Source of the DNA: Candidatus Sungiibacteriota bacterium
GTDB taxonomy: Bacteria; Patescibacteriota; Minisyncoccia; Sungbacterales; HO2-52-23
Length of the DNA: 64,000 bases
Direction: 5' to 3'
NCBI GenBank assembly: GCA_016206285.1
Contig: JACQRW010000024.1
Coordinates: 1,376-65,375 of the forward strand
Positions 2,444 to 43,050 of the stretch are shown piece by piece. A program made the translations under genes and the position numbers. A model generated the notes under the pieces. It saw only the letters and a program-made list of their open reading frames with translations, was not told the DNA's origin and did no database searches. Position 1 is the stretch's first letter. Each line of letters opens with the position of its first letter.

Positions 2444-2923
2444 ATGGAGGATATATCCGATTATCACAAGTTACGGGATGTCACACAAAAGTTTTATAGT
2501 GGGATCGGCATAATACGATCTCCAGCTCTCAATGATTCAGTCCATTTCACCGCCGAGGGTTTCAATCATATCATTTTCAAAGGTTCGCGCTCCGAGCGAG
2601 AGAAACCCTCGCAAATTCTCCGGTTCAAACTCTTACCGCTTGCCGCAAAACTCATCGGTCTCTCAACAACTCATCAAGAATTTGAGGAAACAATCAAAGA
2701 GTTTGAAGTCAAAAGCTACAAGAAGCGTGTCCGGCAATCAAAGCGGGTGCGCTACTGGGGAATTATTGCCATCATTGAAGGCAGGAAGATAAAAGTCATT
2801 GTACGAAGAATAGGCGAAAACGGAGCATTACACTTTTGGAGCATTGTACCGGCATGGACTACAAACAAATACAGAGACATCAGGTTCTTCACAACCATGA
2901 AAGGCAATCCAGACGAAGATTGA
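2444..2923 (+). CDS. Hypothetical protein (start taken at MEDISDYHKL)
   Basis: ORF 2408..2923 on the track; no recognisable family. Confidence 0.4.
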   Translation: MEDISDYHKLRDVTQKFYSGIGIIRSPALNDSVHFTAEGFNHIIFKGSRSEREKPSQILRFKLLPLAAKLIGLSTTHQEFEETIKEFEVKSYKKRVRQSKRVRYWGIIAIIEGRKIKVIVRRIGENGALHFWSIVPAWTTNKYRDIRFFTTMKGNPDED

Positions 2924-3205
2924 AATCAAAAATGCCGCCGTCAGGCGGTATCTTTGATGTGCCTGCCGTCGGCTTATGAATTAGCCGAATAGGGCTGACG
3001 CCCCACAAGCACATTTGTAGTATATCACATGCGAGGGAGGAGTACAAGAGAGAGTATAAATTCACTACGTTTTCGGCTTCGTACTATAGCGAGAGTATTC
3101 GTAGTCATTTTTCTTTGAATTAAAATGGCCAGTACTAAAGGATGGATAATCATTACCTCTTTCGGAGACTTTTACTCTACCATTTTTGACGCTCCTCGAA
3201 ACGCT

Positions 3206-3772
3206 TTATTTATCGCCAATTACTTTACCTTTTATGGATTTCATTAATGGGAAAATATAAAGCCCTGCGCCAATCAGTAAGGACATCATTAAAATTGAAA
3301 TGGAAACACAGGTCTCAGGAGTTCCGTGAAAGACGAACACATACAGATTGGAAATTACAGAGAAAATATAAGCATATATAAATGACTTTGTAATATTATT
3401 CCAAACCATGACTGAGTCATGATTTGGAACAGTTATACGCCATACTATATCTAAATATTCCGTTCTATTTTTTAGAATTTCAGTTTCCAGCCATGAACCG
3501 GAGGAAGCAAATGGATGGCTCTTAACAATTGAGCTAATCCTGAGCGATGCAGGAAAATATGTAAAAATAGCGATCGCTAATAGCCATAAGGTCCAAGACA
3601 AGAAATGTAGTAAGTATGAAGCGTTAGAGATAAGCTGAGGAAGAAAAGAAAGCAGACCTGCGATTGTCAGCATGACTCCAATCCTGCTCGTTTGATCAGA
3701 TTGAATCGCTCGAATATTTTCGAGTTGCTCATTAAAGAATGCTATTTTTTGTTTGTATATATCATCCTCCAT
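3206..3772 (-). CDS. Hypothetical multi-pass membrane protein in an AT-rich segment
   Basis: 188 aa ORF with several hydrophobic helices and lower GC than its neighbours. Confidence 0.45.
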   Translation of the reverse strand: MEDDIYKQKIAFFNEQLENIRAIQSDQTSRIGVMLTIAGLLSFLPQLISNASYLLHFLSWTLWLLAIAIFTYFPASLRISSIVKSHPFASSGSWLETEILKNRTEYLDIVWRITVPNHDSVMVWNNITKSFIYAYIFSVISNLYVFVFHGTPETCVSISILMMSLLIGAGLYIFPLMKSIKGKVIGDK

Positions 3773-3813
3773 ATTTTTATGGCTCCTCGGAGTTCGAACC
3801 TATATCAAATTTG

Positions 3814-3884
3814 CTGCGGGACTAGGATTCGAACCTAGATTAACGGATTCAGAGTCCGCTGGCCTGCCGTTAGCCGATCCCGCA
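3814..3884 (-). tRNA. tRNA-Gln (anticodon CUG)
   Basis: Manual cloverleaf: acceptor UGCGGGA/UCCCGCA with U1-A72, anticodon loop CUCUGAA, T-arm CUAGG-UUCGAAU-CCUAG, discriminator G, CCA not encoded. Confidence 0.75.
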
Positions 3885-3948
3885 ATGAAATAAAATTGCC
3901 TTATACAGGCAATTTTATCGTAGCACATTATTTGAAAAAATCCAACAA

Positions 3949-4857
3949 TCACACATGCAAATAACGCCGCACCGCAACAAAGCTGGAGAGGATGCCAAGA
4001 CCGACGCCAAAGGTGAGCATGATGAGAAAAAATTCAACCAGATGCAGAGTGAAATAGCTGAAGAGATTGAACTCCGGGACGAGAAACGCGAGCTTGGGCG
4101 ATGCATACCAGGTAAGCGGGAAGAAAACCACGGTGGTGACCAGCGCTGCGAAAAAGCCGTACAGAGCGCCGGACACGAGAAACGGGCCGCGGATAAACCA
4201 GCTGGTACCGCCGACTAAGCGCATGATGCCGATTTCCTCGCGCATGGTATAGATAACCAGACGGAGCGTGTTAAAAGCCACAAGCATGGAAATAACCGCC
4301 AGCACCAACGCAAGCACCGCGCCCGATGCGCGCACCGTAGCCAGAATAGAGCCAAGACGCTCCACTACGCGCTCATTTTCGGAAAAGTTAATTTTGTCCA
4401 CGATAGGATAATCTTTTTGCTGAAGAAAGCTTGAGATCGCGGCAAATCGCGAAGAGTCTTTTGCTTTTATATTGATGCTCGCCTCAAGCGGATTTTCTCC
4501 AAGTTCAACAAGCGCCCCAGTGATAAGCTGGTTGTCTTTATGCCGCTCTCGAAACGCAGCAAGCGCTGCATCGCGCGAGGTGTAGGATACGTCAGCAACA
4601 TCGGCGTGAGATTCAAGATCACTCTTCACGCTGAAAATATCCTGTTCGGATGCAGTGGGATCAAAATAGATGCTCACATCAATCCGCGATTCGAGCTGCG
4701 CCAAAATGGTATTTGCAAATGCGCCCAAAAACACCAGATTGCCGATCACGAAAAGCGCCAAAACCATAACCATGATGGTGGCAAGAGACAGCCAAGCATT
4801 TCGCCTGAAACTGACATATCCGGCTGAAAAAACTCGTTTTAATGTGGTAATGGCCAT
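3949..4857 (-). CDS. ftsX: Cell division ABC transporter permease FtsX
   Basis: 302 aa with 4 TM helices and a large periplasmic loop. Typical FtsX N-terminus (RRNAWLSLATIMV), immediately downstream of ftsE. Confidence 0.85.
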   Translation of the reverse strand: MAITTLKRVFSAGYVSFRRNAWLSLATIMVMVLALFVIGNLVFLGAFANTILAQLESRIDVSIYFDPTASEQDIFSVKSDLESHADVADVSYTSRDAALAAFRERHKDNQLITGALVELGENPLEASINIKAKDSSRFAAISSFLQQKDYPIVDKINFSENERVVERLGSILATVRASGAVLALVLAVISMLVAFNTLRLVIYTMREEIGIMRLVGGTSWFIRGPFLVSGALYGFFAALVTTVVFFPLTWYASPKLAFLVPEFNLFSYFTLHLVEFFLIMLTFGVGLGILSSFVAVRRYLHV

Positions 4858-5706: not shown

Positions 5707-6808
5707 TTAGGAATTAAATTTGATCTCGCTTTCTATAAACTCATCCAACGCCCCGTCCAGCACTTTATCTATCTGCGATGTCTCGGTTCCGGTGCGGTGG
5801 TCTTTTACCATCTGGTACGGGTGCATCACATACGAGCGAATTTGGTTGCCCCACTCAATCTTCACTTTTTCGCTTTGCACGCCACGCCGTTCCTGCTCCT
5901 GCTGTTCGAGCTGCAGCTTATACAGCTTTGCGCGCAGCAGACTCATGGCCATTTCCCGGTTCTGGTCCTGAGAGCGCTCGTTTTGGGACGCCACCTGCAA
6001 TCCCGTCGGCACATGCGTGATGCGCACTGCGGTCTCGCGCTTGTTCACGTTCTGCCCGCCCGGACCGGACGACCGGAAAAAATCAATATTCAATTCTTCG
6101 GGTTTCAGCTCTGCCTCTTCCGGGGCAACCATTTCCGGCATTACATCCACCAGCGCAAAAGACGTGTGGCGCAACGATTGCGACGAGAATGGCGAGATGC
6201 GCACCAGCCGATGCACCCCTCCTTCTTTTTTCAGATAGCCATACGCATACGGAGCCTCCACCAGAATAGTCGCATTCTTAATGCCCCACCCGGCGGGTCC
6301 GCTTCCTTCTCCCCAGTGTTCATGGATGATTTTCGTACTCCATCCGCGGTTTTCAAAAAATCTTTGATACATGCGATAGAGAAGCGCTGCCCAGTCTTCG
6401 GCATCGCGCCCGCCCGCACCCGCATAAATCGAGAGTGCCGCATTGCCTTTGTCGTATTTTCCCGAGAAAAAAAGTTGGGTTTCGATCTGCCGCACCTCTT
6501 TTTCCAGGATGCGCCCTCGGGACTCGATCTCCTGCAGCATTTTTTCATCGCTGCCGGCCATGGCCGCAAGCTCCCGCAATGTTTTTACTTCATCCGCAAT
6601 CCGGTCATGCTGTTCGCTATCCCGTTTCAGCTGGCTTAATTCTTTGCTGATTGCCGCCGCGGAGTCATGATTATCCCAAAAGCCAGGCTGCTGCATCTCA
6701 TGTTCAATTTTCAAAACCTCTTGGCGCTTTCCGGCAACGTCAAAGACGGTCCGCGAATCCGCGGATTTTAGCATCTGTTTCGTTCAACCGCTGCAATATA
6801 TCTTCCAT
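5707..6808 (-). CDS. prfB: Peptide chain release factor 2 with programmed +1 ribosomal frameshift. Frame 0 is 6808..6740 (MEDILQRLNETDAKIRGFADRL-stop); translation shifts at CTT TGA C into the 355-aa frame ending at 5707.
   Basis: GGQ motif, SPF tripeptide, conserved RF2 core. The upstream short ORF ends in the canonical shift site CTTTGAC (6745..6739), and the downstream frame aligns to RF2 from DVAGKRQEV. Confidence 0.85.
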
Positions 6809-38988: not shown

Positions 38989-39003
38989 TATATATATCTT
39001 TAT

Positions 39004-40971: not shown

Positions 40972-41042
40972 GCGGCCATGGTTTAGTGGTAGAACACGAC
41001 CTTGCCAAGGTTGAAACGGGAGTTCGATTCTCCCTGGCCGCA
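40972..41042 (+). tRNA. tRNA-Gly (anticodon GCC)
   Basis: Acceptor GCGGCCA/UGGCCGC, anticodon stem CGACC/GGUUG with loop UUGCCAA, T-arm GGGAG-UUCGAUU-CUCCC. Confidence 0.85.
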
Positions 41043-41154
41043 TGGACAGCAATCGAAATCGGGAAAGGGGTAGGGAAAACGGGAGTTTTTCCGTGGTGGA
41101 AGATTTGAAACCGCAAGGTTTCAAGGAGCACTAGCGACGAGTTCTAGCGAAGCG

Positions 41155-41172: not shown

Positions 41173-41232
41173 ACGTTATCCACAGATGATTTTTGACATG
41201 GCATCGGGTATACTGAAAGCACTAGAGAAGTT

Positions 41233-41670
41233 ATGTACTCTGCCAAAGGTCGAAGTATTTTCATGACCAAAAAATATAAAATGAACTCAAAACAATTTTT
41301 GATTCTGGGAGGTCTGGTATTGGTGCTTGTCGCAGTGCTTGGCATGGTCGGCGTGATCGGCCCGACAGCGGAGCAAAGCATTTTCGGACCGAACTGGTGG
41401 TTTGATGCCGGAGAAAACTGGGCGCATCTGGTACTTGGTGTCGTGGCGCTCCTTGCCGCATTCGTGCTTCCGGCAGGCATGCAAAAGCCGCTGGTTATCC
41501 TCGTAGGTCTGCTCGCGCTCGTCGTGGGTGTCTACAGCGCCGCGGTTTCCACTATGCTGCTTGGTGCAAACCTTGAGAACCCGGCAGACACAGTACTCCA
41601 TATTGCCGTCGGCCTGTGGGCGCTTCTTGCAGCAATGATGGGTAAAGAAAGCAGCTCGATGCCCATGTAG
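41233..41670 (+). CDS. Hypothetical 4-TM membrane protein (likely start at MTKKYKMNSKQ, 41263)
   Basis: Hydrophobic helices LILGGLVLVLVAVLGMVGVIG, HLVLGVVALLAAFVL and so on; followed by a perfect 38-bp palindromic terminator. Confidence 0.5.
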   Translation: MYSAKGRSIFMTKKYKMNSKQFLILGGLVLVLVAVLGMVGVIGPTAEQSIFGPNWWFDAGENWAHLVLGVVALLAAFVLPAGMQKPLVILVGLLALVVGVYSAAVSTMLLGANLENPADTVLHIAVGLWALLAAMMGKESSSMPM

Positions 41671-41690
41671 TTTTCCGGAAAGGAACCTAC

Positions 41691-41728
41691 AACTAAAATC
41701 ATTCCGACATGTCGGAATGATTTTAGTT
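41691..41728. terminator. Perfect 38-bp palindrome; bidirectional terminator between convergent genes
   Basis: AACTAAAATCATTCCGACA / TGTCGGAATGATTTTAGTT, flanked by T-runs on both strands. Confidence 0.6.
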
Positions 41729-41739
41729 TGGAAAATCGT

Positions 41740-42132
41740 TCATTTCTGGAGTTCTAGAAGGACTATCAGGACGAGGTTCACAATAACAAATTTTTCTACC
41801 AGAAATCTCCTTATAGTTTCAATTCGTTCAAGATCATAGTACATAGGCCTTCTGGCTTCTGCAGTCCTCCCCTCGGAGAACTCTAGTGTGACACCCTCTA
41901 TATTATCATATTGAACATTATAGATATCTCTTTTTTTATAAACTATCATTCGCTCGTAATATCGAATCTTAAACCAGTACCACATCAGAATCAAAATGAC
42001 AAAAATAAACAAAAAAGCGTTGCACAAAAAAAATACAACCAGACCTGTAAAGAAGAGTGCAATTTCGTCAATTTGAACAAGTTGGAAATTGTCTTTTCTT
42101 TTCATTTTATCTACCCAATCCTCAGAAGACAT
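41740..42132 (-). CDS. Hypothetical AT-rich membrane protein (2 TM helices followed by a possible bacterial PH-like domain)
   Basis: 130 aa with markedly AT-rich codon usage compared with neighbours; possible foreign origin. Confidence 0.4.
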   Translation of the reverse strand: MSSEDWVDKMKRKDNFQLVQIDEIALFFTGLVVFFLCNAFLFIFVILILMWYWFKIRYYERMIVYKKRDIYNVQYDNIEGVTLEFSEGRTAEARRPMYYDLERIETIRRFLVEKFVIVNLVLIVLLELQK

Positions 42133-42192
42133 ATTTGCAATTATAATGTTCAGTATTTATTGACATACTGTTTCGTTATAGAAGTCTATTGA

Positions 42193-42276
42193 TGCCCGGG
42201 GTGGGACTCGAACCCACACGAGGTTTCCCTCAGCAGATTTTAAGTCTGCCCTGGCTACCAGTTACAGCACCCGGGC
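42193..42276 (-). tRNA. tRNA-Leu (anticodon UAA), type II, uninterrupted
   Basis: Acceptor GCCCGGG/CCCGGGC, anticodon stem GCAGA/UCUGC with loop CUUAAAA, long variable arm, T-arm GUGGG-UUCGAGU-CCCAC, 84 nt. Confidence 0.85.
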
Positions 42277-42958
42277 TTATCATTGTTTTATATTTTTCCC
42301 ATCCTACTCTGGATTGCAAACATAGCTTTGCACTCTGTAATTTCCTCTCTAAAGCTAAACAGTCTTTATAATAACATTGCCCGAGAATAAGTTTTGCCGC
42401 AATTTTGCCAAACTTTAAGACATATAATTCATTCCGTCTGTTTTTTCTCGGATAGGTATGAATTTTACCGCTAACCCCAAGACACTCCGCACATTTTACC
42501 TGAAGCCACTCTGTAAATCTACTTGAACCGGAAACAACCTTTACTGACCACTGCTCTCCGCCATTTGTAGGATGACGCCAAGTAAGAATCGAGCCGTCAC
42601 CATCAATTACTCCTCGAAAAAAATCCGGAAAATACTCGAGAGGCACCCTAAGTGCTCCAATCGTGAGCGATTTCCTTTCTGTCAGACCAATCTGCAAAAG
42701 GTAATTATAGAATTTAACATCACTAAATTGAAGAAAGGCATAATTTTTTTCTTTTGACCCACCTCGGGTCTTCTTTATGATTTTTACTTTCAGTCCTAAG
42801 GCATCTCTTACAGTAGTAAGATAGTGCTCATCCTTAGCAGTAATATTGATATGCCGTTTATCTTTACTCAAATTACCATCCGTAGCTATCAAGCCAACTA
42901 CATACCACAAATGTCCGGGCTGTATTAGTTTTAAGTCCACCATACAGTAATGGTACAT
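42230..42958 (-). CDS. Double-motif LAGLIDADG homing endonuclease; its reading frame continues 47 nt into tRNA-Leu(UAA)
   Basis: Motif 1 LWYVVGLIATDGNLS and motif 2 FFRGVIDGDGSI. The last 15 codons (GAVTGSQGRLKIC) are the tRNA 5' half read in frame, and the stop codon lies in the anticodon arm. Confidence 0.7.
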   Translation of the reverse strand: MYHYCMVDLKLIQPGHLWYVVGLIATDGNLSKDKRHINITAKDEHYLTTVRDALGLKVKIIKKTRGGSKEKNYAFLQFSDVKFYNYLLQIGLTERKSLTIGALRVPLEYFPDFFRGVIDGDGSILTWRHPTNGGEQWSVKVVSGSSRFTEWLQVKCAECLGVSGKIHTYPRKNRRNELYVLKFGKIAAKLILGQCYYKDCLALERKLQSAKLCLQSRVGWEKYKTMISPGAVTGSQGRLKIC

Positions 42959-42977
42959 ATAAAGGGGCCTAAGGACA

Positions 42978-43050
42978 AGGTGCAGGAGGGATTCGCACCC
43001 TCGTATAACGGTTTTGCAGACCGTCGCGTTAGCTTCTTCGCCACTGCACC
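42978..43050 (-). tRNA. tRNA-Cys (anticodon GCA)
   Basis: Acceptor GGUGCAG/CUGCACC, anticodon stem ACGGU/ACCGU with loop CUGCAAA, T-arm GAGGG-UGCGAAU-CCCUC, discriminator U. Confidence 0.8.

Follow-up and report, generated by a model that had tools for sequence, protein, structure and literature searches.

We analysed a 64,000-nucleotide stretch of a Candidatus Sungiibacteriota contig (JACQRW010000024.1, positions 1,376 to 65,375), hereafter the window, which carries 16 tRNA genes according to ARAGORN. On its minus strand, between the genes for tRNA-Cys(GCA) and tRNA-Leu(UAA), lies an open reading frame (ORF) of 242 amino acids that an earlier note on this DNA, made from the letters alone, had read as a LAGLIDADG homing endonuclease gene (HEG); ARAGORN, Rfam and the ORF coordinates agree on its placement (Table 1). 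The ORF as listed begins 19 nt past tRNA-Cys, fills the spacer between the two tRNA genes and runs on for 47 nt into tRNA-Leu, so that the tRNA gene supplies the stop codon, the 14 sense codons ahead of it and two bases of a Ser codon. The earlier note was right that the frame ends in the 5′ half of the tRNA and slightly imprecise in placing the stop in the anticodon arm, as the TGA occupies tRNA-Leu positions 45–47, 3′ of the anticodon stem, where the variable arm begins. The ORF enters tRNA-Leu because no stop codon arises before the tRNA, and the overlap is a by-product of read-through, not a functional segment of the protein. A second in-frame ATG at 42943 gives a protein of 237 amino acids opening with MVDLK; because homologues open with MVDLK, this ATG is probably the true start, not the listed one. 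The exact IF-2 of the contig is present in the protein database, as a protein of a Candidatus Sungbacteria MAG from NCBI, and the exact HEG protein is absent from it, its best match being 77% identical; the gene may have been left uncalled in public annotation, possibly owing to the tRNA overlap.

Table 1 Features of the window and of the comparison loci. L-numbers denote fetched comparison loci; positions refer to the locus named in the first column.
Locus	Feature	Position	Strand	Basis or remark
Window	tRNA-Cys(GCA)	42978-43050	-	ARAGORN; Rfam tRNA 62.9 bits; upstream partner of Cys-Leu(UAA) pair
Window	HEG cassette, 698 bp	42278-42975	-	blastn vs HEG-less L167
Window	LAGLIDADG ORF, 242 aa as listed	42230-42958	-	ORF list, Pfam, PHROG
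Window	LAGLIDADG motif 1 VVGLIATDG, predicted catalytic Asp27	42875-42901	-	translation
Window	LAGLIDADG motif 2 FRGVIDGDG, predicted catalytic Asp121	42593-42619	-	translation
Window	ORF/tRNA-Leu overlap, 47 nt	42230-42276	-	tail S-PGAVTGSQGRLKIC + TGA
Window	tRNA-Leu(UAA), intact, intron-less	42193-42276	-	ARAGORN; Rfam 52.2 bits
Window	tRNA-Leu(UAA) to convergent tRNA-Gly(gcc) stretch	41173-42192		hypervariable among relatives
Window	orf130, AT-rich, 130 aa	41740-42132	-	no significant Pfam, NCBIfam or PHROG match
Window	perfect 19+19-nt palindrome AACTAAAATCATTCCGACA/TGTCGGAATGATTTTAGTT	41691-41728		between two convergent ORFs
Window	GC-rich ORF, weak DUF4383 similarity	41233-41670	+	
Window	18-nt exact direct repeat of tRNA-Gly(gcc) 3′ end	41026-41043 + 41155-41172		copies 129 nt apart
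L166	HEG-less long spacer with tRNA remnants	2556-2635		
L180	HEG-less long spacer with tRNA remnants	6251-6480		
L181	HEG-less long spacer with tRNA remnants	5967-6233		
L043	extra segment between HEG end and tRNA-Leu	~2692-2814		
L045	extra segment between HEG end and tRNA-Leu	~4628-4754		
L062	extra segment between HEG end and tRNA-Leu	~4625-4750		
L064	extra segment between HEG end and tRNA-Leu	~4646-4757		
L164	other LAGLIDADG_3 ORF	2873-3613		
L052	other LAGLIDADG_3 ORF	2471-3193		
L031	other LAGLIDADG_3 ORF	3120-3905		
L010	other LAGLIDADG_3 ORF	3846-4580	-	
L147	other LAGLIDADG_3 ORF	2895-3908	-	337 aa
L010	group I intron	2950-3259	-	Rfam Intron_gpI, 57.8 bits

The product matches Pfam LAGLIDADG_3 (PF14528) in two stretches, at 34.7 bits against a cut-off of 22.5, as well as phrog_4645, 'endonuclease', at E = 5.7e-27; no NCBIfam model matches it. 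Translation bears out both motifs on which the proposal of a double-motif LAGLIDADG gene had been based, and none of D27, G28, D119, G120, D121 and G122 varies among the 81 family members compared. In a confident AlphaFold2 model built with 25 homologues (pLDDT 84.2, pTM 0.83), the order of helices and strands fits two α-β-β-α-β-β-α halves, and the stretch that includes the tail translated from the tRNA (residues 224–242) has pLDDT values below 50, so that the tail is predicted to be disordered. A Foldseek search against the PDB returned 62 matches at E ≤ 1e-3, and those listed are LAGLIDADG-fold proteins, led by I-Tsp061I (2dch, E = 1.8e-11) and followed by intein endonucleases, I-OnuI variants, WhiA, I-DmoI and I-SceI, with the bI3 maturase also among them; a profile search of PDB sequences gave I-Tsp061I as its sole match (E = 3e-9). 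Judged by its sequence and its modelled fold, the ORF is thus an intact single-chain, double-motif LAGLIDADG endonuclease gene. By sequence and fold its closest solved relatives form the group of I-Tsp061I and I-DmoI (2dch and 2vs7), archaeal enzymes that share with it the LAGLIDADG_3 clade and a single two-motif chain of ~190–220 amino acids, with identity of only ~20%. Those enzymes lie inside introns of rRNA genes and target rDNA, whereas the family of the window HEG is free-standing, bacterial and located beside a tRNA gene.

Searching 5.8 billion proteins at E ≤ 1e-3, we obtained 485 homologues of the window HEG (best E = 1e-119, best identity 77%), which places the ORF far beyond chance. 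Within the family, 152 clusters at 50% identity fall at E ≤ 1e-30, and the superfamily reaches ~18,000 at E ≤ 1e-3. Many of the homologues finish in ...PGAxxGxQxRLKI, which is the same-frame reading of the 5′ half of tRNA-Leu. A genome scan with the window protein alone as query gave no match and an alignment was needed as query instead; the alignment-driven scan, restricted to one genome per species, yielded 80 loci with the HEG family, from metagenome-assembled genomes (MAGs) labelled Patescibacteria, Omnitrophota, 'Planctomycetia', Elusimicrobia and Armatimonadota, and a family HMM run across all ORFs of every fetched locus raised the count to 82 members. As to the host context of these relatives, which the earlier note had proposed to examine, a same-strand tRNA-Leu(taa) follows directly 3′ in 80 of the 82, the remaining two being cut by contig ends. 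In a scan of viral contigs we found only distant relatives (23–37% identity), none of them adjoining a tRNA.

The upstream neighbour is mostly tRNA-Cys(gca) and sometimes tRNA-Val, tRNA-Thr or no tRNA, and because it varies in this way, the constant partner of the family is the 5′ end of tRNA-Leu(UAA). Where tRNA-Cys does lie upstream, the distance from its 3′ end to a conserved LWY motif is mostly 46–64 nt, which leaves only ~13–31 nt between the tRNA and the start codon, so that the mobile unit is essentially the ORF alone. On the other side, the stop codon lies between −140 and +43 nt from tRNA-Leu, with a median of +2, and an overlap of identically 47 nt occurs in eight loci, the window included. 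The overlap in the window is thus one state of a continuum, in which the ORF ends before the tRNA wherever a stop codon happens to occur. In four loci, an additional 113–128 nt separate the conserved HEG end from tRNA-Leu, and these segments have no Rfam match.

To learn how widely the gene occurs among close relatives, we compared infB–rbfA neighbourhoods of Sungbacteria picked by IF-2 similarity alone, blind to the presence of the HEG. Among the eight lineages sampled, only the window carries the HEG. It is absent from L166 (IF-2 identity 79%, Cys–Leu spacer 80 nt), L167/L168 (78%, 17 nt), L161/L162 (77%, 12 nt), L164 (77%, 15 nt, with a different LAGLIDADG gene upstream of tRNA-Cys), L180 (60%, 230 nt), L181 (58%, 267 nt) and L182 (58%, 38 nt). 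All seven HEG-less lineages keep the order infB–rbfA–tRNA-Cys–tRNA-Leu, and tRNA-Gly and tRNA-Phe on the opposite strand are seen in them too where the fetched contig extends far enough. A corresponding scan of metagenomes for IF-2 relied on generic GTPase patterns, which retrieved ~40%-identical IF-2s of unrelated bacteria, and its one informative locus, L147, likewise has a short Cys–Leu spacer, within 12–17 nt. The gene is thus neither ubiquitous nor fixed among relatives, the closest of which lack it, and tRNA-Leu loci with and without the ORF both exist. Together with the same position in distant phyla, these seven lineages are what would be expected of a mobile element homing at tRNA-Leu, one of the possibilities raised at the outset.

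A blastn comparison of the window with HEG-less L167 delimits the insertion. Homology spans positions 1–427 and 1126–1213 of the compared segment, with 84% identity from rbfA through tRNA-Cys; the alignment stops 2 nt past tRNA-Cys and restarts 1 nt ahead of tRNA-Leu, and between these breaks the window has a cassette of 698 bp where L167 has a 14-nt spacer, its HEG-less junction reading CCTGCGCCT-tgctaaataaatatgta-GCCCGGGTGTCGG. The cassette is the ORF alone and is too short to hold a promoter or terminator of its own. E. coli has the same tRNA-Cys–tRNA-Leu(UAA) pair in glyW–cysT–leuZ, with a spacer of 12 nt, and comparison of these sequences indicates that the pair with its spacer of ~12 nt is ancient.

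The long HEG-less spacers of L166, L180 and L181 contain no recognizable decayed HEG remnants, tblastn matches being at chance level; they hold remnants of tRNA halves instead. A leftover 3′ half of a second tRNA-Cys lies ~30 nt past the intact gene in L166 and L180 and ~95 nt past it in L181, where the remnant is itself interrupted, while the remnant of L166 is of another sequence type, matching the window and L167. In L180 a leftover 5′ half of tRNA-Leu precedes the intact tRNA-Leu by 14 nt. These remnants look like scars of repeated break-and-repair or replacement at the operon.

The position of the cassette bears on whether the gene might be the remnant of an intron or intein, for example a relic of the tRNA-Leu(UAA) group I intron that has lost its ribozyme. 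Group I introns of bacteria and plastids are classically found in tRNA-Leu(UAA), which had suggested such a link at the start; the nearest solved relatives of the enzyme are encoded by introns and inteins, and one related locus, L010, does contain a group I intron at another place. Yet no group I model matches between positions 39000 and 45000 of the window even at E ≤ 1 (Rfam), and none was found beside the HEG in 13 related loci. As already noted from the letters, tRNA-Leu is colinear and intron-less by ARAGORN. The gene lies 5′ of position 1 of the tRNA and not in the anticodon loop, the boundaries of the cassette coincide with tRNA ends, no ORF is present that could have hosted an intein, and sister lineages of the gene occupy other tRNAs (see below). 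We consider such an origin highly improbable and regard the gene as free-standing, like the F-type HEGs that include T4 Seg and Mob, and as filling a spacer between conserved genes. The intron in L010, a Patescibacteria-like locus, has tRNA-Gly(gcc) and tRNA-Val(tac) on either side and presumably sits within a tRNA gene missed by ARAGORN; the LAGLIDADG genes of L010 do not adjoin it.

It was also suggested that the HEG belongs to an acquired island bounded by a tRNA-Gly repeat, that is, that it travelled as cargo of an integrase-type element attached at a tRNA and corresponding to the AT-rich segment at 41.2–42.2 kb. Parts of this description hold: the cassette is AT-rich (38.7% GC against 48.2% for the window), the 18-nt repeat of the tRNA-Gly 3′ end is real and exact, orf130 is AT-rich and has no family match, and relatives differ in the length of the tRNA-Leu to tRNA-Gly segment, which ranges between 40 nt and ~1150 nt. 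However, the copies of the repeat do not flank that segment and bracket only 111 nt, no integrase was matched in a Pfam scan of four ORFs within 39.6–43.0 kb, and no tRNA-Leu or tRNA-Cys repeat flanks the HEG. Moreover, tRNA-Leu itself separates the cassette, a self-contained indel between two tRNAs, from the variable segment, and other genomes have the cassette without the segment, making this origin, too, very unlikely. The tRNA-Gly repeat resembles an att scar, left by an integrative element of which almost nothing remains. The adjoining stretch is ~1150 nt long in both the window and L164, about half that length (~585 nt) in L161 as well as L167, and as short as 40 nt in L166; in the window, the palindrome between its two convergent ORFs is probably a bidirectional terminator hairpin. 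In L162 a called gene of 209 amino acids overlaps the tRNA-Gly gene on the opposite strand.

Taken together, these observations favour a model in which the window carries a free-standing LAGLIDADG HEG in the spacer of an ancient tRNA-Cys(GCA)–tRNA-Leu(UAA) operon, in other words in the 5′ leader of tRNA-Leu, and we put the probability of this reading at roughly 75%. In our model, the enzyme would cut the uninterrupted Cys–Leu junction of HEG-less genomes, its target comprising the spacer, the opening bases of tRNA-Leu and perhaps also the tRNA-Cys end; tRNA-Leu(UAA) probably carries part of this predicted homing site, and tRNA-Cys would form its left homology arm. A HEG-carrying copy would serve as the template for repair of the break, the conserved tRNA genes on either side acting as homology arms, and this repair would copy the cassette in and split the target site, rendering the carrier immune. 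Because the cassette has no room for a promoter, and consensus scans of it for promoters and terminators found sites no commoner than in shuffled sequence, we suggest that the tRNA precursor transcript includes it. Both tRNAs would then be freed intact by RNase P and 3′-end processing, tRNA processing thereby substituting for splicing, and the insertion would be as cheap for the host as a self-splicing intron.

The pattern of sequence divergence would suit a gene which is maintained intact and may move between hosts. None of the 81 copies examined has a frameshift or an internal stop, and dN/dS is 0.04–0.16 in 13 close pairs, a mark of strong purifying selection. Across the 14 genomes with both genes, HEG identity exceeds IF-2 identity in 83 of 91 genome pairs (means 51.6% and 42.8%, r = 0.39); in the one closely related pair the HEG diverges faster than IF-2 (73% vs 85% identity). 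The HEG is lower in GC than its flanks in 80 of 81 loci (37.8% vs 46.4%). In a dendrogram of the HEGs, hosts with differing tRNA-Leu acceptor stems are intermixed within the Omnitrophota cluster, and a small number of loci of the Patescibacteria type fall in with it or outside the main Patescibacteria cluster. We take these features as the probable signature of an active, horizontally spreading HEG and not of a fixed host gene or a fossil, its activity being a prediction from sequence.

The tRNA-Leu of the window is, in addition, a mosaic. Its 26 nt nearest the HEG, which include an unusual CTG/CAG D-stem, match the distant HEG carrier L069 at 100% identity and close relatives at only 69–73%, while its distal 40 nt are 93–95% identical to those of L167 and L179. 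The mosaic may mark a co-conversion tract, the sequences compared being very short. The CTG/CAG D-stem occurs in 16 of 32 Patescibacteria-type HEG carriers and in none of five HEG-less loci (Fisher p = 0.057, with samples that are non-independent). We rejected the idea that this D-arm variant serves as self-protection: in L179, the closest HEG carrier, tRNA-Leu hardly differs from its counterpart in HEG-less L167, and the variant is thus not needed for immunity.

Several points weigh against our model. The first bases of tRNA-Leu vary by host group (GCCCGGG, GCCGGGG, GGGCAGG) and the spacer is not conserved, so that one fixed recognition sequence would not suffice for the whole family and specificity would have to co-evolve. 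The HEG dendrogram broadly splits a Patescibacteria cluster from an Omnitrophota cluster, and much of the history of the gene may therefore be vertical. Within the clade of the window, inheritance with loss and transfer are indistinguishable, as the 77% identity between the HEGs of the window and L179 is about that of IF-2 among these Sungbacteria. Degenerate copies, which the classical homing cycle predicts, were not seen among the copies retrieved, possibly as a result of pattern-based retrieval, which is biased towards intact copies. Finally, the proposed mechanism is drawn wholly from comparative anatomy.

Some of the same data would suit a domesticated LAGLIDADG protein with a host function at the tRNA operon, either as a WhiA-like regulator or as a maturase-like cofactor for the tRNA-Leu precursor. 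All copies examined are intact and evolve at low dN/dS, distant phyla have the gene in the same place, phylum is broadly reflected in the HEG tree, and WhiA/DUF199 and the bI3 maturase, like yeast HO, share the fold. HO also exemplifies how free-standing LAGLIDADG genes can persist. Domesticated proteins of the WhiA type and maturases have lost their catalytic residues and are fixed in their hosts. Unlike these proteins, the window HEG family keeps both catalytic Asp residues and is patchy among relatives, missing from seven of the eight Sungbacteria lineages with the same operon. The AT-rich, foreign-looking composition in nearly all loci and the greater similarity of HEG than of IF-2 between distant genomes also speak against domestication, and the existence of sister lineages at other tRNAs suits a selfish niche better than one dedicated function. 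We therefore regard domestication as unlikely, if the strongest of the alternatives.

A further alternative, which we rate as less probable still, is that the HEG was once mobile and is now stranded, inactive or without a target, with decay pending and the locus a fossil. That the gene no longer stops ahead of the tRNA and ends in a junk tail, and that inspection of the sequence reveals no obvious Shine–Dalgarno sequence ahead of either candidate ATG, would be in line with this scenario. It is at odds with the low dN/dS, the invariant catalytic and structural residues and the intact frames described above, and HEG-less target alleles exist in related lineages.

The model of a homing gene in a tRNA leader gains breadth from the other LAGLIDADG genes encountered. 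Every other non-viral LAGLIDADG ORF in the fetched loci, five in total and all above the Pfam threshold, abuts the 5′ end of a tRNA gene. A second lineage ends at tRNA-Cys (at +25 nt in L164, +10 nt in L052 and −23 nt in L031), and in L052 and L031 a HEG of this tRNA-Cys type and one of the tRNA-Leu(UAA) type occupy one operon. A third lineage, in L010, overlaps tRNA-Leu(gag) by 14 nt, and the ORF of L147 overlaps tRNA-Ser(gct) by 5 nt. Where tblastn aligns them, these lineages are ~28–31% identical to the window protein. Their presence at other tRNAs implies that the choice of tRNA-Leu(UAA) is unconnected with the group I intron, and suggests a general niche for HEGs in tRNA 5′ leaders.

We tentatively propose, at somewhat less than even odds, that these genes represent an undescribed class of mobile elements, 'tRNA-leader homing genes', consisting of LAGLIDADG ORF-only cassettes at tRNA 5′ boundaries inside tRNA operons, with lineages specialised by tRNA. 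RNase P and 3′-end processing would here assume the role of self-splicing, the flanking tRNAs would act as universal homology arms, and lineages on tRNA-Leu(UAA), tRNA-Cys, tRNA-Leu(GAG) and tRNA-Ser(GCT) would spread both inside Patescibacteria, Omnitrophota and other uncultivated phyla and from one of these to another. If this is true, any copy that ends its reading frame within the tRNA would be left by RNase P cleavage with a non-stop mRNA, and expression of the HEG would be coupled to processing of the precursor.

Among known systems, the closest functional analogue of the window HEG, whose homing is here a prediction, is SegB of phage T4, a free-standing GIY-YIG HEG in the T4 tRNA cluster that drives preferential inheritance of the region (PMC2330249). 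Both are free-standing HEGs among tRNA genes, outside any intron or intein, and SegB, by cutting the HEG-less genome, favours transmission of its own gene along with the tRNA region around it (PMC2330249). The two differ in enzyme family, GIY-YIG as opposed to LAGLIDADG, and in setting, phage co-infection as opposed to a cellular chromosome; and while SegB is a single known case, the family described here is locked to the 5′ boundary of one tRNA across phyla.

In tRNA-Leu(UAA), the group I intron occupies the anticodon loop as a ribozyme and usually carries no endonuclease. In cyanobacteria and plastids this intron has the same host gene as the window HEG and is likewise hidden in RNA that is removed from the mature tRNA, whereas the HEG lacks a ribozyme and sits in the 5′ leader, where its removal would be ordinary tRNA processing. 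In bacteria of the candidate phyla radiation (CPR), LAGLIDADG genes are reported by Brown et al. (2015) to occur in intervening sequences of 16S and 23S rRNA genes. These insertions share with the window HEG family the host radiation, the superfamily and conserved structural-RNA targets, and differ in that the family lies between tRNA genes, without intervening-sequence machinery. Searches of the literature, of which our coverage is incomplete, turned up fungal mitochondrial cases and T4 SegB but nothing on LAGLIDADG genes beside tRNA-Cys/Leu in bacteria or on a niche in tRNA leaders. The finding extends established concepts: the enzyme family and its lifestyle of free-standing homing are known, and the niche is new, strikingly precise and broad in its phylogenetic range.

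On the common view, HEGs need an intron or intein for entering conserved genes and are otherwise confined to variable intergenic DNA. The arrangement described here would represent a third solution in cellular chromosomes, in which the HEG occupies the few bases between co-transcribed tRNAs and is removed by tRNA processing. The resulting insertions are a recurrent cause of conflicts between ORF and tRNA gene calls in MAGs, and for enzyme engineering the family offers compact LAGLIDADG scaffolds (~225 aa), a natural series with new specificities. For the selfish gene itself, the gain would be a harmless location together with a target neighbourhood that is among the most conserved in bacteria, the Cys–Leu(UAA) pair being common to E. 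coli and the Patescibacteria loci examined, and this would help to explain how such genes spread among uncultivated lineages with reduced genomes.

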